The notes beneath the pieces were generated by a model, which made no database searches, had not been told where the DNA came from, and was given only the letters and a program-made list of their open reading frames with translations. The position numbers and the translations under genes were made by a program. From Candidatus Enterousia sp. (GTDB lineage Bacteria > Pseudomonadota > Alphaproteobacteria > Rs-D84), in NCBI GenBank assembly GCA_045651525.1, contig JAZRSO010000032.1:4523-68522 (forward strand): 64,000 nt of DNA, written 5' to 3'. This document shows positions 52,478 through 61,464 of the stretch, in pieces (position 1 is the stretch's first letter; each line of letters opens with the position of its first letter).

Positions 52478-54424
52478 ATGCCTGATAAAACTGTTGCACA
52501 AAAACGTGGTGATGATGTGCGGGCTGCCGTAGATAAACTGAAAAAAGTACGTTTGAATTTACAAAATAAACAAATACCAGATACTGTGCATTTGCCGGAT
52601 GTTTTTACGCGCGTCAAAAATAAAAATGGTGAATCTGTGCTGCAAGTCAATCAATCTAAATTAAAAGTTTGGGCAGAAGAGGTCTTGAAACAAACAGGTA
52701 AACTATCTGGTGTGTCTGCGTTGTGGCTGGCAGAATATATTGTGCGTGGATTAAATGCACTGTTTGTTGATAATGCGTTAATCAGAAATATGGAAAGTGC
52801 ATCAAAAAACAGCGCGTTTACTAAGATTGGTGCAAAATATCCATGGTTAAAAAACTATGTGTTGTATTATATGATGGTTGGAACAATGGCTGTTTCTGGT
52901 GGGCAATTAGCCGCAAATGGATTTAGTAAAGACAATGATAACGATGATAAAAAAGAAAATATTTATAACCCACAAGATAATCAAAAAAAATTTGAAGACT
53001 TTGTTTTAAATCCAAATGCGAATGATGCAGAATGGAAAAAGCAAATAGATGCAATTCAGCCTTATGTTGTTGCACATATCTTTTCAACCGAAGGTTTTAT
53101 AGAAGCTGCGTATTATGATAATGGCAGTAATAGGGGAACCTTGACCATCGGTGCTGGATTTACAATCAAAGATGAATTGCATCGTAATTTTGCTGCGAAA
53201 ATACTGGGGCGCAAAGTTGGAAATATGGCGCGCATTACAAAAACAGAAGCGAGAATTCTGGGCGACGCATGGTTAAGAGAAATGATATATCCCAAGATGC
53301 GCCAAGAATTTAAGAAACCAATGTCTGCGCGCATTTTTGTAAGTCTTGCTGTTGCTGCGTATAATGCCGGAGAAAATGTTTACATGAATGGTAATTCTGG
53401 GCGACCTGTGGTTGATGCTGTGAATGCTGGAAAAAGTGTTGAAAAAATCGCAGATGCCTATGTTCGTGCGTTTGGTAAAATTCGTGGTACGGGGTGGGGT
53501 GGTATGCCAAATAAATATGGTGTGTGTGCGTTGTATATGCAGGGAAAGCTTTCAGATAATGCAATATTGAATTCAATTTGCGAAGCGCCATATGGTATCG
53601 AAGATTTTGTACGTGCAGCACAAAAAGAAGATAAAAAATTTGACCCTGAAAAAATGGTGTTGGGGCGCTTGCTGATATATGATGGTAATAATCATAGCGC
53701 TAAACCAAATGATGTCTTGGAATACGATGTTGATAATATGTTATTAAGTGTGAAAAATAGAACTACAAAAGGTACAAAACAAGTGCCTGTGCGTGATTTT
53801 TTTAGTAACACAGAAATAGAAACAATGAAACAAGGATTATTGTTCCAAACGCCTGTTGCAGACTTTATGCAAGAATATGAACAGCAGGTTATTGCACAAC
53901 AATCAGAGTCTGAAAAATTAAATGAAGAAGGCGAGTTGTTGTTCTTTGCAAATAAACATGATCAGGCAGAAAAAAAGTTTATGCAAGCGTTGGAAAAAGA
54001 TGACAGGAATTATATCGTATATAGTAATCTGTCAATCTTGTATTACCATAAGGGCGAATATCAGAAAGGTTTGGAAGTTGTACAGAAACTGATAAGTTCA
54101 GAAAAAATAAAATCTATGCCAAAAGAGATGAGGTCTTATGCGTATTATAATGCTGCCCTGTGTCGCGAAGGGTTGGGTAATAACGCCAAGACAAATAAAG
54201 AAAAACTGGAACATTATAATGCTGCAAAAGAAAATTTGAAACTGTCAGAACGATTCGGTGATGATACACATGGACAATTAAGAAGTAGGCTTGATGAAAA
54301 AATAAAAAATCTGTCTGTTCGACAGGTAACTGCATTCCATAATAGTATCAAGCAAATAAGACAAAAAAATGCCAAGCATGATTTGTTGCTGTACGGAACA
54401 GAACGTAAAGTTGATTTAACTTAA
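52478..54424 (+). CDS. Membrane-anchored GH24 (phage-type) lysozyme-like domain protein with C-terminal TPR repeats (648 aa)
   Basis: STEGFIEAAYYDNGSNRGTLTIGAGF ... ITKTEA ... FVSLAVAAYNAG resembles EGxxxxaYxDxxGxxTIGyG ... fNxG of GH24. One TM helix YVLYYMMVGTMAVSGG. TPR-like C-terminus. Confidence 0.55.
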   Translation: MPDKTVAQKRGDDVRAAVDKLKKVRLNLQNKQIPDTVHLPDVFTRVKNKNGESVLQVNQSKLKVWAEEVLKQTGKLSGVSALWLAEYIVRGLNALFVDNALIRNMESASKNSAFTKIGAKYPWLKNYVLYYMMVGTMAVSGGQLAANGFSKDNDNDDKKENIYNPQDNQKKFEDFVLNPNANDAEWKKQIDAIQPYVVAHIFSTEGFIEAAYYDNGSNRGTLTIGAGFTIKDELHRNFAAKILGRKVGNMARITKTEARILGDAWLREMIYPKMRQEFKKPMSARIFVSLAVAAYNAGENVYMNGNSGRPVVDAVNAGKSVEKIADAYVRAFGKIRGTGWGGMPNKYGVCALYMQGKLSDNAILNSICEAPYGIEDFVRAAQKEDKKFDPEKMVLGRLLIYDGNNHSAKPNDVLEYDVDNMLLSVKNRTTKGTKQVPVRDFFSNTEIETMKQGLLFQTPVADFMQEYEQQVIAQQSESEKLNEEGELLFFANKHDQAEKKFMQALEKDDRNYIVYSNLSILYYHKGEYQKGLEVVQKLISSEKIKSMPKEMRSYAYYNAALCREGLGNNAKTNKEKLEHYNAAKENLKLSERFGDDTHGQLRSRLDEKIKNLSVRQVTAFHNSIKQIRQKNAKHDLLLYGTERKVDLT

Positions 54425-54436
54425 AGGAATATATTT

Positions 54437-56437
54437 ATGAAAGTTTATGTTGATATACATGATAATCGCTGGAAAAAATATAAAATCGATTTTGCAAAAA
54501 TCGCAAATGCGGTCGTTGGAAAAAAATATAAAAATTCCGAAGTGTCAATCGTATTGGTCGATGATAAAGAGATAAAAAAAATCAATCGTGAATATCGTAA
54601 TATCAATAAACCTACAAATGTTTTGTCTTTTGAATTGGGTGACGATGAATTGCTGGGCGATATTTATATATCGCTGGATACAGTTATAAAAGAAGCAGAA
54701 CAAGAAAATATCTCTGTTGAACATCATACGGCACATATGGTTGTACATGGTGTTTTACATCTGTTAGGGTATGACCATATCAATGATAATGACGCAGTTG
54801 TTATGGAAAACAAAGAAACAAAAATACTGGAAAAAATGGGAATAAAAAATCCTTATGCAAGCACTTGTGAAATATCTTGTGTGGATGGTTCTTGTTGCCC
54901 AGGTGCAAAAACAATTGCGTTTTTAAAAAGACTAAAAGTTACAGATAATAGTTTTGTTCAATATCTTCTATACGGCGTGTTTGGTGCGTTTGCAGCGTTT
55001 GGGTTTGCACCATTCTATCAATGGTGGTTGACTGTCTTGGGTGTCGGTGGCGCGTATTGGTTGACTGTAAGTAATAAAAATATTGGTGGTTTTTGGCGTT
55101 CGTTTGTTCGTGTTGCACCATTCGGTGCAATGTATGGTTTGTTTATGTTTTGGTGGGTCTTACATTCTATATATGTTGTGCCAGAAATCGCAGATGTTTA
55201 TGCAATATGGACAATACCAGGTGCGATTGGATTGATGTTGGCGGGATGGTTGATTTTTTCATGGCCATTTGTTGCTGTGGCGAACAAGAAAACGTCTGCG
55301 GCATCCAGAATATTTTTATTCGCGGGTGTTTGGGTATGCGTTTTATGGGCGCGTGAATGGATGTTTACCGGATTCCCATGGAACCCAATTGCAAATATAA
55401 CAATGCCGTATCCTGTGTTGGCAAATTCTATGTCGCTGTGGGGTGCGTTGGGTTTAAGTTTTATAATTGTTGGGCTAATCGCAGGTTTGGTTGAATTATT
55501 CAGGAATTATAAAAATATATGTGTTTGGATTGTAAATATTGTGTTTGTTGGAATCGCTGTATACGGCGGATTTTATGGTGTGCATAATATTGAGTTGTCT
55601 GATGTTGGAGCAGATTCAACGGCGGTTATGCTGCGAATTGTTCAGCCTGCGTCATCGCAAATGCAAAAGGCAACTCATAACAGGGTAGCGGCAATGCAAT
55701 ATGCAGAATATAATGTACGTAATTTAATAAATATGGCATCTGCCGAGGGAATTTTTGACATTATAATTATGCCAGAAACATCGTATCCATTTGTTGTTCT
55801 GAATACTGATACTGTTGATATGGCATCTTATTTGCAAAAGCCACTTGTTTTTGGTGCGAATACGTTTGATGCGGGTGGTGTTTTTAATTCAATGGTTGTA
55901 TCCCAAGAAAACGGCCGTATAGAACGTATTTATAGTAAATCTCATTTGGTGCCTTTTGGCGAATATTCGCCACTGGGTATTTTGCCGTCACCTGCAAATT
56001 TAACTGCGGGTAATGGCCCAGAAGTCATAGATTTAAATGGTTTTAAATTTGTGCCGGCAGTATGCTATGAAATTATTTTTTCTGATTCTTTGGTGCCAGA
56101 CGGGGCAGGTGACATAAATGCAATTATAAATATTACAAATGATAACTGGTTTGGCAAAACCCCAGGTATTTATCAACATCTTGATATGGTGCGCAGATAT
56201 GCGATTGAATCAGGATTGCCAGTTGTGCGTGCAAATTATTCTGGGATAAGCGCGTTTGTTGCGTCTGATGGTGAAATTATTTCATCGTTGCCGGTCGGTA
56301 TGTCGGGTGTCTTGGACGGTTTTGTTTGGGGGGCGCATAATACGCCATATCGTGAAATAGGCTTGAATTATTGGATGATTATAGTGTTGATTGTGTCGAT
56401 ATTTGGATCGGCTGTATTTTCAAAAACACGCGAATAA
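54437..56437 (+). CDS. lnt: Fusion protein: rRNA maturation RNase YbeY (N-terminal ~150 aa) + apolipoprotein N-acyltransferase Lnt
   Basis: YbeY H-box HMVVHGVLHLLGYDH. Lnt motifs IIIMPETSYPF, YSKSHLVPFGEY, VCYEIIF. One uninterrupted 666-codon frame. Confidence 0.85.
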   Translation: MKVYVDIHDNRWKKYKIDFAKIANAVVGKKYKNSEVSIVLVDDKEIKKINREYRNINKPTNVLSFELGDDELLGDIYISLDTVIKEAEQENISVEHHTAHMVVHGVLHLLGYDHINDNDAVVMENKETKILEKMGIKNPYASTCEISCVDGSCCPGAKTIAFLKRLKVTDNSFVQYLLYGVFGAFAAFGFAPFYQWWLTVLGVGGAYWLTVSNKNIGGFWRSFVRVAPFGAMYGLFMFWWVLHSIYVVPEIADVYAIWTIPGAIGLMLAGWLIFSWPFVAVANKKTSAASRIFLFAGVWVCVLWAREWMFTGFPWNPIANITMPYPVLANSMSLWGALGLSFIIVGLIAGLVELFRNYKNICVWIVNIVFVGIAVYGGFYGVHNIELSDVGADSTAVMLRIVQPASSQMQKATHNRVAAMQYAEYNVRNLINMASAEGIFDIIIMPETSYPFVVLNTDTVDMASYLQKPLVFGANTFDAGGVFNSMVVSQENGRIERIYSKSHLVPFGEYSPLGILPSPANLTAGNGPEVIDLNGFKFVPAVCYEIIFSDSLVPDGAGDINAIINITNDNWFGKTPGIYQHLDMVRRYAIESGLPVVRANYSGISAFVASDGEIISSLPVGMSGVLDGFVWGAHNTPYREIGLNYWMIIVLIVSIFGSAVFSKTRE

Positions 56438-56439
56438 AT

Positions 56440-56658
56440 CTAGTTTTTATAAGTCTGTAAAATTGCTTGTTGTAAAATCCAAACACGTACTGCAGATGAT
56501 AAATTTCTGTCGCGTGGACGTGTAGAATCTATGTCATTTATAATTGCTGCGATTGAACGATTCTGCCGTATAGCAAGTTTTTGTAATGCGTCAATAAACT
56601 CTGATTCCAGTGTAATACTTGTTTGGTGTCCAGATAAAGAAACGGATATTTTTTTCAT
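56440..56658 (-). CDS. Ribbon-helix-helix (RHH_4-like) DNA-binding protein
   Basis: KKISVSLSGHQTSITLESEFIDALQKLAIRQNRSIAAIINDID...RNLSSAVRVWIL fits the RHH_4 pattern. Confidence 0.65.
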   Translation of the reverse strand: MKKISVSLSGHQTSITLESEFIDALQKLAIRQNRSIAAIINDIDSTRPRDRNLSSAVRVWILQQAILQTYKN

Positions 56659-56659
56659 G

Positions 56660-57094
56660 TTAAATTTTCCCTGATATTAAACAGTCTGTCATCGCACGGT
56701 ATGGGTCATCATAACGACGCAATGGTGTTAAATTCAAGTTGTCTAGCATATAGAATGTTCCAAACGCATCAAATGCAAACCAAAATAAATCATTGCGACC
56801 AAATATGGTTTTGCCGACTGTCTTGCCCAGAACAGATATATCATCATTTATTTTTAATATACTGGGTATCGGGTAATTTTTCTCACGTGCTATTTCATTA
56901 GGGCCAAATATGTAACCAGTATCCATACAAATTGCGCCGGTGTTTTCATATAATTCACGAAGTGCATTTGGTAACATGGCGTATCTGCGTTGCTGTAATG
57001 CACCATTTAATAATTGTATTTGATATTGTCCGGTTGGGGAAAATATGACGGCACCACGTGATTTAATTGTTTCTATGAATTCAGCAGTATTCAT
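56660..57094 (-). CDS. SUKH (SMI1/KNR4)-like putative immunity protein
   Basis: LPNALRELYENTG ... IFGRNDLFWFAFDAFGTFYMLD ... pattern. ATG 57094 with AAGGAA SD; 1-nt gap to the RHH gene. Confidence 0.45.
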   Translation of the reverse strand: MNTAEFIETIKSRGAVIFSPTGQYQIQLLNGALQQRRYAMLPNALRELYENTGAICMDTGYIFGPNEIAREKNYPIPSILKINDDISVLGKTVGKTIFGRNDLFWFAFDAFGTFYMLDNLNLTPLRRYDDPYRAMTDCLISGKI

Positions 57095-57110
57095 ATTCGT
57101 TCCTTTGTGT

Positions 57111-57617
57111 TTACATATCTCTATCAGCTGCAATTTGTGATGCGATTGTTTCTGTCAATCTGTCTTCGGTGCCATTCCCACCATCGCCACCGCTGATGTT
57201 GCCAATTGGTAAATAGATTTTTTTCGCTGGATTTGGCAACCATATTAAATCATTTCCAGATTGTGATATTATAAATCTGTCCATGTTATAAGAATGTGGA
57301 AATGTTTTACATAAAAACATATTTTCAATGCTTAGCTCGCCACCCCATACCAATGGTATTCTAAAACGTATTGATAAATTTTCTGCGATTTTTTTCCCGG
57401 TAATTAAATCAATAAATTCTTCTTGGGAAAGGTTTATCAATGCAATTTCTTCGATACAATCAGACAGCGTTGTCATAAATTCATGGCACAGTTTTTTATA
57501 TCTGGCAAACCAGTCGTTTGGAATATTTGCACGTATTGGTTTGATTTCCATAATTGGTAAATCTTTGAGTCCAAGTTCGGCGATTTTCTTTTCAGCAAGA
57601 CTGGCGTTTAAATACAT
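57111..57617 (-). CDS. Hypothetical protein (168 aa) with a degenerate HNH/colicin-DNase-like motif
   Basis: RFRIPLVWGGELSIENMFLCKTFPH has the P-x3-GG-x5-N-x8-H spacing of beta-beta-alpha-Me nucleases, but RF replaces the HH dyad. TAATG overlap with the upstream gene. Confidence 0.4.
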   Translation of the reverse strand: MYLNASLAEKKIAELGLKDLPIMEIKPIRANIPNDWFARYKKLCHEFMTTLSDCIEEIALINLSQEEFIDLITGKKIAENLSIRFRIPLVWGGELSIENMFLCKTFPHSYNMDRFIISQSGNDLIWLPNPAKKIYLPIGNISGGDGGNGTEDRLTETIASQIAADRDM

Positions 57618-58507
57618 TACAAGTGTCCTATGTAATCAATTACTGTTGATATATAGCCAGAAAAGGCATCAAAATTTTCAGCCATGTCTGGATCTGTTGG
57701 TGGATTTGGGTTTTGTGATATATATGCACGTAATTCGTCTGTGTCTTTGAAATTAAGTATTTCTGGGGCAGGTGGGTTTGTTACGTCATTGGCTGCTATT
57801 ACAAATCCGGTTATTTTAATTTCTACGTCTTCTAATGTGTCAGAAAATACTTGCTGAAATGCGTCAATAATGCTTTGCATCGTAGATGTTTCAATGTTTC
57901 GTCCGCCAATCCATACGGTTTCATTACTGCCAATTGCAAATAAAGGAATCCTGTACCCATGTACACGTGGTGACTTTTTTATAACGTATCCGGCAGATGA
58001 GAATATTTCTTGCAGTTCTGTGTCTTCTTGTTCTGGTGTTGCAGAACTGGTTGGTGTTGGTGGCGATAAAACAGGTGCGGTTGAAGGGGCGCCTGCAACA
58101 GGGGCGGTCATTATTTCTATGTGTGTTGTTGGTGTGTTGGTATGCATGCCGTTTAGTCTTTTTGGACGCGCCAGTGCAAATACATCGGGGTCGTTTGTAT
58201 TGCTGTTGTGTGTTACGGGTTGTGTTTGTTCGTTTGTTTTTTTAGATTGTGGTAACTTTATTTTTCTAAAACGTGGGCGAATTAATAAATACAGACCAAA
58301 CACAATACAAAATACAGCAATAATCATAGAGATATAAAACAATGGTTTTATCTGTGTCTGGGTGACCTGCATATATGCAAGGTGGCGCCAATGTGTGCCT
58401 GATAATATATTAAATCCGAATTGAGTGTTAAACCAAAAACATGCACCCAGGGTTGATAACAGCAACCACAATGTTCCCAGTAAAATATTATCAAATTTAT
58501 TTCTCAT
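57617..58507 (-). CDS. Membrane protein: two TM helices, Pro/Thr-rich linker, uncharacterised C-terminal domain (296 aa)
   Basis: TM helices ILLGTLWLLLSTLGACFWF and LFYISMIIAVFCIVFGLYLLI; linker APVAGAPSTAPVLSPPTPTSSATP. Confidence 0.55.
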   Translation of the reverse strand: MRNKFDNILLGTLWLLLSTLGACFWFNTQFGFNILSGTHWRHLAYMQVTQTQIKPLFYISMIIAVFCIVFGLYLLIRPRFRKIKLPQSKKTNEQTQPVTHNSNTNDPDVFALARPKRLNGMHTNTPTTHIEIMTAPVAGAPSTAPVLSPPTPTSSATPEQEDTELQEIFSSAGYVIKKSPRVHGYRIPLFAIGSNETVWIGGRNIETSTMQSIIDAFQQVFSDTLEDVEIKITGFVIAANDVTNPPAPEILNFKDTDELRAYISQNPNPPTDPDMAENFDAFSGYISTVIDYIGHL

Positions 58508-58521
58508 TACGGTTTTTATTG

Positions 58522-58537
58522 TATCATATTTATGATA
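58522..58537. promoter_or_regulatory. Perfect 7-2-7 palindrome TATCATA-TT-TATGATA in a 44-bp divergent intergenic region (candidate operator)
   Basis: Centred between the starts at 58507 (-) and 58552 (+). A third TATGATA half-site overlaps ATG 58552. Confidence 0.35.
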
Positions 58538-58551
58538 AAGTAGGAAGAGTT

Positions 58552-59226
58552 ATGATAGAAAAAAATATTATTTTTGATGATTTATCAGATGTTGCGGCTG
58601 TTTGGTGTGATGCGGCAATTGATTCTGGCGAATTGGCACGTGTAGCTGGCGTTATTATGGACAGAAATATATCTTTTGTTTCTGTTGTGCCAGAATGTGT
58701 GCCTGTTATTTGGCCGTGGCTGGAAAACAAGGGTGTTAAAATATTGTCGCGTTTCGTTCTGCCAGATAAAAAGGTTACAGAACAGCAGATTTCTGATGTG
58801 ACAATGGCGATAAATACTGCGTTCAAGCATGGTGCACATGGCGCACAGATTTTCCTGCCGTATGGTGCGCTGGGCGAATTGGTTGAACAAACGCACGTTA
58901 TCAGGGATGATTTGTTCTTTAACAAGGATTTATCAATCGCAATTGATATAAATCAAATCGATTCGTCTGATTGGGAAAATTTGTTTGAAAATTTACGCAA
59001 GATAAATGCAACGTCTTTGCTGGTAACATTGTCAAAAGATACAGGGGACAAATCTGATTTTGTTGGGCGTTTATATGGAATGCTGGATGTGTGGGAAAAT
59101 GAAAATAATTTTGACGTTCATTTTGCGTTTGGCCAGAATTTCCAACGTATAGAGCAGGCATTGCGTCTGATAAAAAGTGTACGTCCAGAACTGATTAAAA
59201 CAACCAAGGTATTTATAAATTATTAG
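58552..59226 (+). CDS. Hypothetical protein (224 aa); weak DeoC-like aldolase/TIM-barrel resemblance
   Basis: AGGAAGAG SD before ATG 58552. ISFVSVVPECVPVIWPWLENKGVKILSRFVLP loosely resembles the DeoC N-terminal strands; low confidence. Confidence 0.3.
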   Translation: MIEKNIIFDDLSDVAAVWCDAAIDSGELARVAGVIMDRNISFVSVVPECVPVIWPWLENKGVKILSRFVLPDKKVTEQQISDVTMAINTAFKHGAHGAQIFLPYGALGELVEQTHVIRDDLFFNKDLSIAIDINQIDSSDWENLFENLRKINATSLLVTLSKDTGDKSDFVGRLYGMLDVWENENNFDVHFAFGQNFQRIEQALRLIKSVRPELIKTTKVFINY

Positions 59227-59843
59227 TTGTGTAATACCAAATATTTTGGTGCGGCGGTTCCTGCCTTGTTTTTATGCTGATAACGTGTTTGAACAATTTC
59301 CATATCTGGAACTGTTGCAGATAAATTTGTCTTTTTGATTTGTTCCAGTATCCAATCGAAATATTCCCAGTGGTCTGTACCAATAATAATTTCGCCATTT
59401 TTAGACAAGTATTTGGATAACATATTCAAGAATTCAGCAGACAACAGGCGGCGTTTTTCGTGTCTTGCCTTGGGCCATGGGTCGGGATGCAATACCCAAA
59501 TTTGCGAAAATTTTGATTCGGTTTTACGCAAGAAATCACGAACGTCATCTGCCCAGATGCGAATGTTTTTGTATTCATCCAGTACCCGATTCGATTTTTC
59601 GTCGGTAATTGCAGACAGCAAACTGGCCACGCCGTTCATAAATGGTTCGGCACCAATGATGATTTTGTCTGGATTATTGTGTGCCAAATCGCCTACGTGT
59701 TCGCCCGCACCAAATCCAATTTCCAATATATCGCCCATTTCTGGGGCAAGGGTGGGTAACAATTCGTCAATCAGTGTTTGTTGACGGGTGGATAATTTTT
59801 TGCCGTGACGACGGCCAAATGTTCTTATTTCTTGTTTTTCCAT
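59223..59843 (-). CDS. trmB: tRNA (guanine46-N7)-methyltransferase TrmB
   Basis: SAM motif LEIGFGAGEH and HPDPWPKARHEKRRL. ATG 59843 preferred over 59876. Confidence 0.88.
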   Translation of the reverse strand: MEKQEIRTFGRRHGKKLSTRQQTLIDELLPTLAPEMGDILEIGFGAGEHVGDLAHNNPDKIIIGAEPFMNGVASLLSAITDEKSNRVLDEYKNIRIWADDVRDFLRKTESKFSQIWVLHPDPWPKARHEKRRLLSAEFLNMLSKYLSKNGEIIIGTDHWEYFDWILEQIKKTNLSATVPDMEIVQTRYQHKNKAGTAAPKYLVLHN

Positions 59844-59889
59844 ATATTTAGTATAGAATTGAGTTTTATAAAACACAAGGAATATATAG

Positions 59890-61464
59890 ATGAGAAATGG
59901 TTTGTCAAAAGATTTAATCGCACGCGTTTTGGGCGCGGCACCAAAATATACATTGGATGAATTAGAAGCAAAATTCCCAGTACGTAATCTGGGCGAAGGG
60001 GTTAAAGTGACACGATTCGCCCCCAGTCCAACAGGCTATATGCATTTGGGTAATTTGTATAGCGCACTGATTAGTTATAAGTTGGCACAACAGTCAGGTG
60101 GTGTGTTCTTGTTACGTATTGAAAATACAGATACAAAGCGTGAAAATAAAGATGCAGTTGATATTATCATAAATTCGTTGGCTGAATTTGGAATTACGTA
60201 TGAAAACGATCCGGTGTATGGACCATATTATCAATCAGAACGTAAAGATATTTATCATTCTGTGGCGGCAGATTTATTGGCACGTGGGTTGGCATATCCG
60301 TGCTTTTTAACCCAGGAAGAAATGGACGAAATTCGTGAAAATCAAAAAGCGGCAGGTTTTGCAACGGGGATTTATGGTGAATGGGCACGTGATCGTGATT
60401 TAACCGAAGAAGAAATTATTGCATATCTGGATAAGGGGTTGGTGCCGTCAATTCGTTTGTATTCAATGGGTAATCCAGAACAGCGTATTTTCTGCAAAGA
60501 TGCGGTGCGTGGGTCGCTGTCTGTGCCAGAACATAATGAAGATACTGTTTTAATTAAATCTACGGATGGGTTGCCAACGTATCATTTTGCACACTTGTGT
60601 GATGATCACTTTATGCACACAACACATGTTGTTCGTGATGAGTCTTATTTTGGAACGTTTGCAATGCATGTTCAGATGTTTCGTATGATGGGCTGGGAAT
60701 TGCCTGCATATGTTCATATTGCGACATTGGATAAGATTGATGAAGAAACAGGCAAGCAAAGAAAATTGTCAAAGCGTAAAGATCCAGAGGCAAATGTTGC
60801 ATTTTTCTTGGAAGCGGGTTGGCCAGTTGAATCTGTGATTGAATATCTGGGAAATATTTTGGCGCCGGGATATGAAGAAGCAAAAGTAAAGGGCCAGGTT
60901 AAATCGTTCTGGGATTACGAAATGCGTCCAAAGAAAATGCCGGTATCTGGGTCGTTGTTTGATATGAAAAAACTGGAATGGTGGGCCAAAGAATTTATTG
61001 GTTCGTTGCCTGTGCCAGAATTGGTTAGTCGTGTCGTTACATGGGCAAATGAATATGGAACAGATGTTAACAAAATGCAGGTTGCAGATGTTCAATATCT
61101 GACAGGTGTCTTGGGTATTGAACGCGATAATCCAAAGCGTGTACGCAAAGACTTTATCACTTGGTCACAGACGTTGGAAAATGTTGCGTTTTTCTGGGAT
61201 GAGTTATTTGTCCCAAATACAGAATATGAATTTAACAAGGACGCGTTGCGCGCGTTTTTGGAAACATACGATGCCGCAGATGATAAAGATACTTGGTGGG
61301 CAAAAATTGTCGCGGTCGCCGAAAAATGTGGTATTAAAAATGGCGATGTTGCAATGAATCTGCGTGTGGCGTTATCGGGCCGTACAAACACCCCAGACCT
61401 GTATTCAATAATGACAGTTATGGGTGGCGAACGTGTTAAACAAAGGGTGCAAAATGCAATTTAA
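59890..61464 (+). CDS. gltX: Glutamate--tRNA ligase
   Basis: HIGH-type PSPTGYMHLGN and KMSKS-type KLSKRK. Confidence 0.9.
   Translation: MRNGLSKDLIARVLGAAPKYTLDELEAKFPVRNLGEGVKVTRFAPSPTGYMHLGNLYSALISYKLAQQSGGVFLLRIENTDTKRENKDAVDIIINSLAEFGITYENDPVYGPYYQSERKDIYHSVAADLLARGLAYPCFLTQEEMDEIRENQKAAGFATGIYGEWARDRDLTEEEIIAYLDKGLVPSIRLYSMGNPEQRIFCKDAVRGSLSVPEHNEDTVLIKSTDGLPTYHFAHLCDDHFMHTTHVVRDESYFGTFAMHVQMFRMMGWELPAYVHIATLDKIDEETGKQRKLSKRKDPEANVAFFLEAGWPVESVIEYLGNILAPGYEEAKVKGQVKSFWDYEMRPKKMPVSGSLFDMKKLEWWAKEFIGSLPVPELVSRVVTWANEYGTDVNKMQVADVQYLTGVLGIERDNPKRVRKDFITWSQTLENVAFFWDELFVPNTEYEFNKDALRAFLETYDAADDKDTWWAKIVAVAEKCGIKNGDVAMNLRVALSGRTNTPDLYSIMTVMGGERVKQRVQNAI

Follow-up and report, generated by a model that had tools for sequence, protein, structure and literature searches.

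Can a toxin-like gene, an immunity-like gene and a ribbon-helix-helix (RHH) regulator that follow one another in an operon be taken as a conflict system? The question was raised by four minus-strand genes of a Candidatus Enterousia sp. genome (GenBank assembly GCA_045651525.1), which we studied within a 64,000-nucleotide (nt) stretch of contig JAZRSO010000032.1 (positions 4,523 to 68,522 of the forward strand; hereafter the window). The operon, G1-G2-G3-G4, occupies positions 56440-58507 and encodes proteins of 296, 168, 144 and 72 amino acids (aa), respectively. An earlier interpretation made from the letters of the DNA (the sequence-only reading) had proposed it as a candidate conflict, toxin-antitoxin (TA) or defence module with a toxic second gene. 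The homologue searches, structure models and neighbourhood comparisons described here led us to another view. That G2 descends from an HNH-nuclease toxin, and G3 from the SUKH immunity protein paired with it, is well supported by sequence and structure comparison, and we propose that this pair was exapted as a non-enzymatic, RHH-autoregulated component of a conserved operon. We give this proposal an even chance of being correct.

HNH ancestry of G2 and its SUKH-type partner G3

Direct searches with G2 found no match in Pfam (including HNH), NCBIfam, PADLOC or PHROGs, and sequence and profile searches of the PDB gave nothing significant. A profile made from an alignment of 31 G2 homologues was then run against 1.84 billion representative sequences, and it retrieved 71 proteins, including a group of 190-420 aa with a G2-like domain at the C-terminus. 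One member of this group, P0400, was matched at E=6.5e-8, and its C-terminal domain in turn matches genes annotated as 'HNH endonuclease' on 458 enterobacterial plasmids (E=4e-12, ~31% identity). Each of these plasmid genes is directly followed by a gene for a 'YrhA family protein', YrhA being the NCBIfam family that is weakly matched by G3. The copy on a Kosakonia plasmid carries VHHKIPLDDGGTNALDNLVLIQNSPYH (fuller reading WQVHHKIPLDDGGTNALDNLVLIQNSPYHS) and exceeds the gathering score of the Pfam HNH family, with 23.6 bits versus 21.4. When the G2 profile was aligned to this Kosakonia protein with hhalign, the two proved colinear over 122 columns, with R84-F85 of G2 falling on the HH dyad. 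Through these intermediates G2 is homologous, transitively, to genuine HNH-domain proteins with SUKH/YrhA neighbours, which bears out the description of gene 2 as degenerate HNH-like in the sequence-only reading.

The AlphaFold2 (AF2) model of G2 is in agreement with this ancestry. At a predicted local distance difference test score (pLDDT) of 80.5, it shows a strand at residues 81-85, a loop, a strand at 100-104 and a helix at 105-117. The segment RFRIP...GG...N...FLC...TFPH is placed on this beta-beta-alpha arrangement, and residues 84-108 read RFRIPLVWGGELSIENMFLCKTFPH. HNH domains (Cas8-HNH, ZRANB3 HNH, Gme HNH and many phage HNH) predominated at the top of the lists obtained with this model by Foldseek searches of the PDB and BFVD, below significance. 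Overall, G2 is built of an N-terminal helical part, the beta-beta-alpha core, a conserved GGDGGN.TEDR motif predicted to be disordered and a C-terminal helix. Its hydropathy profile shows no hydrophobic segments, with cytoplasmic placement of the protein, and such segments are likewise lacking in G3 and G4.

Joint alignment with active HNH proteins indicated that G2 does not have the HH...N...H set of general base and metal ligands. The HH dyad is replaced by R84-F85, as had been noted earlier, while the terminal His corresponds to S109. The sequence-only reading had instead taken H108 as the terminal His of the core, and this assignment did not hold; H108 is also not conserved (Y, N or Q in 7 of the 31 close homologues). 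Among the superfamily members retrieved with the profile, the HH positions are occupied by RF, KF, YM, IL, MM, MF, ML, HL or HI, and the general-base His is absent from every relative found. The invariant columns of this superfamily are structural ones: N80, P88, G93, N99, Q119, G146 and G147. A search with G2 gave 312 homologues, and invariant columns within the G2 family include the charged residues R84, R86, D113, D152 and R153. By the joint alignment, G2 derives from HNH proteins but no longer has their canonical catalytic machinery. Because the general-base, metal-binding and terminal His are all lost, it is almost certainly not a nuclease.

Pairs of HNH toxins and SUKH immunity proteins are known from polymorphic toxin systems (Zhang, Iyer and Aravind 2011, PMC3113570), and the paper describing them makes no mention of inactive HNH partners. 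The closest comparison for G2-G3 is with the HNH and YrhA pairs of enterobacterial plasmids (for example Kosakonia cowanii NZ_CP107078.1, IncHI2), where likewise an HNH-type gene has a SUKH gene a few bases downstream. The homology between G2 and the plasmid HNH proteins is not confined to the motif but spans the whole domain of ~140 residues, covering the N-terminal helices, the P-x3-GG-x5-N stretch and a W/F-x-P-x-P-x2-K-x-Y segment. G2 departs from these proteins in having RF where they have HH, Ser where they have the terminal His, and an extra C-terminal GGDGGN.TEDR tail; the GG.GGN.T.DR motif and the terminal helix were gained in the G2 superfamily and are absent from the active plasmid proteins. 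Unlike the polymorphic-toxin HNH proteins, it also lacks any trafficking or extension domain at the N-terminus, an absence that had already been noticed in the sequence. Furthermore, G2-G3 is neither plasmid-borne nor polymorphic but chromosomal, single-copy, syntenic and strongly conserved, and it is joined to a 2-transmembrane (2-TM) protein and an RHH_4 regulator, which the plasmid pairs are not. As a side observation on these plasmids, the HNH gene that precedes yrhA on IncHI2 plasmids (Klebsiella grimontii, NZ_CP067381.1) is annotated at only 191 aa, compared with 345 aa for the Kosakonia copy, and directly follows an ISEc27 transposase gene. The IncHI2 toxin gene may have been 5′-truncated by the insertion sequence while the immunity gene stayed intact.

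For G3, which carries LPNALRELYENTG and FGRNDLFWFAFDAFGTFYMLD, the evidence came mainly from structure comparison. Its AF2 model, built with 30 homologues, reached a pLDDT of 91.7, and the top four PDB matches found by Foldseek are all SUKH proteins: 2prv (YobK), 2icg, 3d5p (BF1740) and 2pag (PSPTO_5518), with template-modelling scores of 0.59-0.70 and a probability of 1.00. Sequence models pointed the same way without passing a curated cut-off of Pfam or NCBIfam. Pfam SMI1_KNR4 scored 17.6 bits against a cut-off of 25.4 (E=0.006) and matched 7 of 30 members of the G3 family (best E=3e-4), and the NCBIfam YrhA family scored 15.8 bits against 55 (E=0.0096); sequence and profile searches of the PDB gave nothing significant. 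Judged by its model, G3 is a SUKH-fold protein, and the earlier designation of gene 3 as SUKH-like is thereby confirmed. In every context that we examined, a gene of the G3 type lies directly downstream of the HNH-derived gene.

Conservation of the operon at one chromosomal site

The coordinates of the operon and its surroundings are collected in Table 1. G1 and G2 share one base within TAATG (57615-57619), the 16-nt gap between G2 and G3 reads ACACAAAGGAACGAAT and contains AAGGAA, and G4 begins one base past the stop codon of G3 (TAACATG). All three junctions had been placed correctly in the sequence-only reading, as had the block itself, between lnt and trmB: the window shows ybeY-lnt on one side and U224, followed by trmB, on the other. 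The ATG at 57094 is the start of G3, and the upstream TTG proposed by the open reading frame (ORF) finder (157-aa version) is not, because nearly all of the 120 homologues among the matches listed are of the shorter length (exactly 144 aa in 115). Comparable junctions were found in the loci L001-L006, with a 1-nt overlap, a gap of 4-14 nt and a gap of 1-4 nt. The stop/start overlaps and very short gaps are thus conserved in relatives, as in a translationally coupled operon. No match to a structured RNA in Rfam was found in the region.

Table 1. Features of the G1-G4 operon and its flanks (window coordinates)
Feature	Position	Strand	Description	Basis
G1	57617-58507	-	296 aa; predicted inner-membrane 2-TM protein	ORF and sequence
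G2	57111-57617	-	168 aa; HNH-derived by homology	ORF, homologues, AF2, profile search
G2-G3 spacer	57095-57110	-	16 nt with AAGGAA Shine-Dalgarno sequence	direct sequence reading
G3	56660-57094	-	144 aa; predicted SUKH (SMI1/KNR4) fold	AF2 and Foldseek
G4	56440-56658	-	72 aa; RHH_4 ribbon-helix-helix	Pfam
Divergent control region	58508-58551	.	44 bp between G1 and U224	alignment of 73 loci
U224	58552-59226	+	224 aa, divergent to G1; no family assigned	homologue alignment
trmB	59223-59876	-	beyond U224	
gltX	59890-61464		after trmB	
ybeY-lnt fusion	54437-56437	+	flank on G4 side	

The distribution of the operon was scanned in one genome per species of GTDB, and 80 loci were retrieved for synteny. 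A G2 relative is encoded in at least 163 species-level genomes, which belong to Candidatus Enterousia and its allies in the order Rs-D84, and the close homologues all come from metagenome-assembled genomes of animal and human gut samples, labelled 'Alphaproteobacteria bacterium' or Candidatus Enterousia. In all 80 loci G1-G2-G3-G4 are colinear, with the same junction types and with U224 divergent beside G1, and as far as each contig extends the block is bordered by trmB/gltX and ybeY-lnt. Since order and junction types recur in every one of these genomes, the tight packing is not a matter of chance. The block is present in single copy at one fixed chromosomal site in the 80 species inspected, and this probably extends to all 163.

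Sequence divergence across the lineage was comparable to that of housekeeping genes. Amino-acid identity with the window proteins drops as low as 53-60% for G2, 47-60% for G3 and 55-70% for G4, next to 49-60% for lnt and 57-70% for trmB. Ratios of nonsynonymous to synonymous substitution rates (dN/dS), computed against five closer species, were 0.045-0.135 for G2, 0.07-0.13 for G3 and 0.06-0.15 for G4. The neighbouring genes gave 0.12-0.18 (lnt), 0.08-0.11 (trmB) and 0.06-0.135 (gltX). G1 evolves faster on account of its linker (dN/dS 0.15-0.29). The length of G2 is uniform as well, at 166-170 aa in nearly all of 120 homologues among the matches listed.

Features of a mobile or arms-race locus were not observed. 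No paralogues of the operon genes lie in the window, where G3 occurs once and tandem immunity arrays are absent, and the block has no mobile-element flanks. No relatives were found in 2.9 million viral contigs, and a phage origin was rejected on this search; no direct plasmid match was obtained for G2 itself and no PADLOC match for the block. Because of the fixed synteny, the purifying selection and the absence of viral, plasmid and PADLOC matches, we conclude that the operon is a vertically inherited gene set common to the lineage, and not a mobile or arms-race locus. This conclusion is well supported. A check of neighbourhood conservation had been suggested along with the conflict hypothesis, and it found the four genes to be conserved neighbours in all 80 genomes inspected. 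Conservation as neighbours everywhere argues for a core function rather than for conflict. The idea that the operon serves conflict, TA or defence through a toxic gene 2 is consequently not supported: the canonical catalytic residues of G2 are gone, the site is fixed and under purifying selection, and the block contains no toxin domain with such residues, no trafficking domain on the putative toxin, no arrays of variable toxin/immunity cassettes, no match to a known defence model and no patchy, mobile or island-like distribution.

The membrane protein G1, the presumed regulator G4 and the shared control region

Hydropathy indicated two hydrophobic segments in G1, near residues 8-26 and 51-80, and a Pro/Thr-rich linker comes after them. 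As judged from the charges in the sequence (MRNKFDN ahead of the first transmembrane segment, RPRFRKIK after the second), the linker and the C-terminal domain are predicted to lie in the cytoplasm. A homologue search and alignment yielded 189 G1 homologues with the same architecture: a highly conserved 2-TM module with an external loop of ~28 aa (FWFN..FGFN..S..HW..LAYMQ), a variable Pro/Thr-rich linker with a conserved RPxRLN motif (RP.RL invariant), and a conserved C-terminal domain of ~130 residues. This is what the sequence-only reading had made of gene 1, a 2-TM protein with a Pro/Thr-rich linker and an unassignable C-terminal domain, and the library searches for it were empty. Two candidate assignments were rejected. 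A NERD or PD-(D/E)xK identity of the C-terminal domain was dropped as 0 of 25 G1 family members match NERD. The protein that takes the position of G1 in the locus L096 gave a NERD match below the cut-off (E=0.007), a lead only, and hhalign of the G1 alignment against it gave E=0.0034 with a probability of 9.6%. The second candidate, G1 as a decayed VirD4, was discarded after hhalign of the G1 alignment against two type IV coupling proteins (T4CPs) found no similarity.

G4 is by sequence an unambiguous RHH_4 protein (Pfam PF13467, E=9e-20, 70.9 bits versus a cut-off of 25, model positions 2-66 of 67), in accordance with its earlier assignment. It is 45% identical to an RHH_4 protein of Sinorhizobium meliloti. 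The RHH_4 gene adjoins an opposite-strand asmA gene both in S. meliloti and in L009, a locus of a relative described below, and because of this G4 may be an orthologue of a pan-alphaproteobacterial RHH_4 regulator. The genes upstream differ, being sspB and DUF4169 in S. meliloti and G1-G2-G3 here. The S. meliloti locus (L099), sspB-DUF4169-RHH_4 beside the opposite-strand asmA, is in record CP090106.1, which is labelled pSymB yet measures 3.7 Mb. Our search of the literature on RHH_4/PF13467 and on YhhZ/YrhA found nothing usable.

The 44-bp region between G1 and U224 is far more conserved than its surroundings. Almost all of its core columns are at least 90% identical across 73 loci, whereas identity is just 40-70% in the coding columns to either side and 40-60% among the proteins of these loci. 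It contains an inverted repeat, ATCATA-TT-TATGAT, at 58523-58536, the arms of which extend to 9 nt with one mismatch (58520-58539). The repeat occurs once per locus, always at the same position, and no convincing second copy was found in the window. Read in the direction of the operon, it overlaps TGATACAAT, an extended -10-like element (TGnTACAAT) whose end lies 10 nt ahead of the ATG of G1. Because no Shine-Dalgarno sequence lies between this element and the ATG, a G1 mRNA that is leaderless, or nearly so, is plausible. We infer promoter and operator roles for the region; the conserved inverted repeat is consistent with putative operator binding by G4. It offers a candidate operator for the widespread but unstudied RHH_4 family.

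Throughout this lineage U224 is found next to the operon, on the other side of this region; it may be co-regulated with the operon or be a functional part of the module. No match to it was found in Pfam or the PDB, and a vague resemblance to DeoC seen by eye was supported by no search. G1, G2 and U224 thus represent at least three protein families without a Pfam model. A copy of U224, 21% identical, is located ~4 kb from the operon in L009.

Put together, these elements suggest how the exapted pair could operate. G2 and G3 would retain the tight heterodimer typical of toxin-immunity pairs, and their complex would act as a protein- or DNA-binding module without enzymatic activity. It would work at the inner membrane with G1, whose linker and C-terminal domain would face the cytoplasm. 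G4 would bind the palindrome overlapping the promoter elements and thereby repress the operon, and probably U224 as well. Docking of the pair on a membrane-anchored partner, or its handling by one, is probable, because a 2-TM protein with a cytoplasmic domain is encoded directly upstream in each case: G1 here, or VirD4 in relatives.

Relatives beyond the lineage and competing explanations

The same four-gene arrangement was found in a 30%-GC lineage (L009-L011), in another genomic setting with accDA and the opposite-strand asmA. It consists there of a 442-aa 2-TM protein whose TM module is homologous to that of G1 (hhalign E=8e-6 for L009), a G2 homologue with 40% and a G3 homologue with 32% identity, and an RHH_4 gene. 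The loci L096-L098 encode a 389-aa 2-TM protein followed by G2-like, SUKH-like and RHH_4 genes, while L093 has the G2-like/SUKH-like pair alone. In four further contexts from uncultured lineages (L007/8, L092, L105 and L106/7) a dead-HNH gene, that is, a G2-like gene lacking the general-base His, directly follows a gene for a VirD4-type T4CP (Pfam T4SS-DNA_transf, 1e-41), and a SUKH-like gene of 143-144 aa comes next in all four. The T4CP and dead-HNH genes of L106 overlap by 1 nt. The G2-like proteins of this group retain the first and last His, and they often have an MWDWS N-terminus and a long Pro/Gln-rich linker. These loci resemble the Enterousia operon in that a gene for a 2-TM protein lies upstream of homologous G2-like and G3-like genes, with translational coupling, and they differ in that this protein is an ATPase coupling protein instead of G1 and that no RHH_4 gene was seen there. 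Housekeeping genes (aspS, mscS) surround the L106 trio, and no VirB genes could be recognised in its vicinity.

Tentatively, and with less assurance than we attach to the exaptation in Enterousia, we extend the idea to these relatives. Dead-HNH/SUKH pairs may form an unrecognised, widespread two-gene cassette that was exapted from interbacterial toxin-immunity systems into a non-enzymatic module with 2-TM partners, either VirD4 or G1 together with RHH_4. The cassette would be part of the core genome in Rs-D84 and could possibly serve membrane-linked signalling or the handling of macromolecules that are secreted or transferred.

Several points speak against an exapted, non-enzymatic pair. The direct hhalign comparison of G2 with HNH is weak by itself (E=0.012), so that the link rests on the intermediate group, and Foldseek searches of the PDB and BFVD with the G2 model returned no significant match (best E 0.55-0.66). 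The invariant residues R84, R86, D113 and D152/R153 of G2 could serve a non-canonical activity. The C-terminal domain of G1 is without an assigned fold, and no match for G1 was found in Pfam, NCBIfam, PADLOC, PHROGs or the PDB. Moreover, every mechanistic step proposed above derives from homology and gene context, and a fixed addiction module could likewise persist and show purifying selection.

Conceivably, the pair is instead secretion-linked, with G2 as a non-enzymatic substrate or regulatory subunit, G3 as its chaperone or adaptor, and VirD4 or G1 as the coupling factor, serving cell-to-cell interaction. The four independent contexts in which the dead-HNH and SUKH-like genes directly follow a VirD4-type T4CP gene favour such a cargo, as does the location of active relatives in or beside the transfer region of IncHI2 plasmids. 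The conserved C-terminal tails (GGN.T.DR plus helix, with the T4CP-linked group ending in ..GR), which active HNH proteins lack, would also fit. So would the biology of the order: Enterousia belongs to the uncultured Rs-D84, with genomes of 0.67-1.6 Mb, mostly below 1 Mb, that encode neither respiration nor most biosynthesis, and its members are proposed to depend on other cells (PMC12306168). However, tblastn searches for VirB2-B11 and VirD4 found no such gene in the window or in any Enterousia locus, and no resemblance of G1 to T4CPs could be detected. Neither the RHH_4 gene nor the core-like synteny points to a dedicated effector. With 57-73% identity among their T4CPs, the T4CP-linked loci may all belong to one clade. 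On balance we regard a cargo and its chaperone as unlikely, if the most serious competitor to exaptation.

An active three-component TA or abortive-infection module seems to us more doubtful still. Here G2 would act as a toxin through non-canonical chemistry and be countered by G3 as antitoxin, with G4 as the repressor and G1 as a membrane sensor or effector, and the module would have been fixed by addiction. Tripartite TA systems with an RHH regulator, such as omega-epsilon-zeta and paaR-paaA-parE, likewise comprise three small co-transcribed genes for a toxin, a neutraliser and an RHH repressor. The small, tightly coupled genes with a terminal RHH regulator, the origin of G2-G3 from a toxin-immunity pair, and the invariant charged residues R84, R86, D113, D152 and R153 of G2 can all be read in this way. 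But the regulator gene comes last here and first in those systems, the toxin-like G2 is in all likelihood catalytically dead, the distribution is core-like instead of patchy, and there is an additional membrane protein. The catalytic His of an HNH toxin is absent, with variable residues at these positions across the superfamily, and the PADLOC, viral-contig and direct plasmid searches were empty. Presence of one copy per genome, always at the same site, in at least 80 species with reduced genomes, with neither tandem immunity arrays nor mobile-element flanks, is not what such a module would predict. Nor is a dN/dS of G2 that equals or falls below that of housekeeping neighbours, with no sign of diversifying selection.

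That four unrelated genes are merely packed together in a compact genome, as a coding density of ~90% (PMC12306168) and the abutting or overlapping of other neighbouring genes might suggest, we consider very improbable, since this idea is largely refuted by co-occurrence across unrelated flanks, the G2-G3 pair being found in at least five different genomic settings and the triad with an upstream 2-TM gene in three, with conserved stop/start overlaps.

If the exaptation reading is true, a toxin-immunity pair has been domesticated into conserved machinery and kept in genomes of ~800-900 genes, which have shed almost everything dispensable. The link of dead-HNH/SUKH pairs to VirD4 would then offer a testable handle on the regulation or loading of T4CPs. 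For automated mining of defence systems and toxins the operon calls for caution, as the order of a toxin-like, an immunity-like and an RHH gene is insufficient evidence of a conflict system.

Some observations concern the flanks and the records of this lineage. The endoribonuclease YbeY and the apolipoprotein N-acyltransferase Lnt form a single protein of 666-670 aa here (Pfam YbeY, LNT_N and CN_hydrolase); other Alphaproteobacteria encode them separately, by two genes within an operon. The fusion is also present in L001-L006 and most of L012-L091, and is thus conserved across the lineage. Ahead of it, positions 52478-54424 (plus strand) encode a 648-aa protein with C-terminal tetratricopeptide repeats that evolves much faster than its neighbours (dN/dS 0.20-0.52) and is undetectable, or just 21-35% identical, in many species. 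On the opposite flank, the gltX protein of the window is 93-99% identical to those of L012, L013, L015, L016, L045 and L049 (dS 0.15-0.17), while the neighbours of gltX in these six species are 60-90% identical (dS 0.4-1.5). This pattern suggests that Enterousia species have recently exchanged gltX by recombination or transfer. Finally, L089 (OZ246409.1), a complete chromosome of 716 kb labelled 'uncultured Muribaculaceae bacterium', shows the full synteny of the Rs-D84 type (lnt, G4-G1, U224, trmB, gltX), and its taxonomic label is probably wrong.

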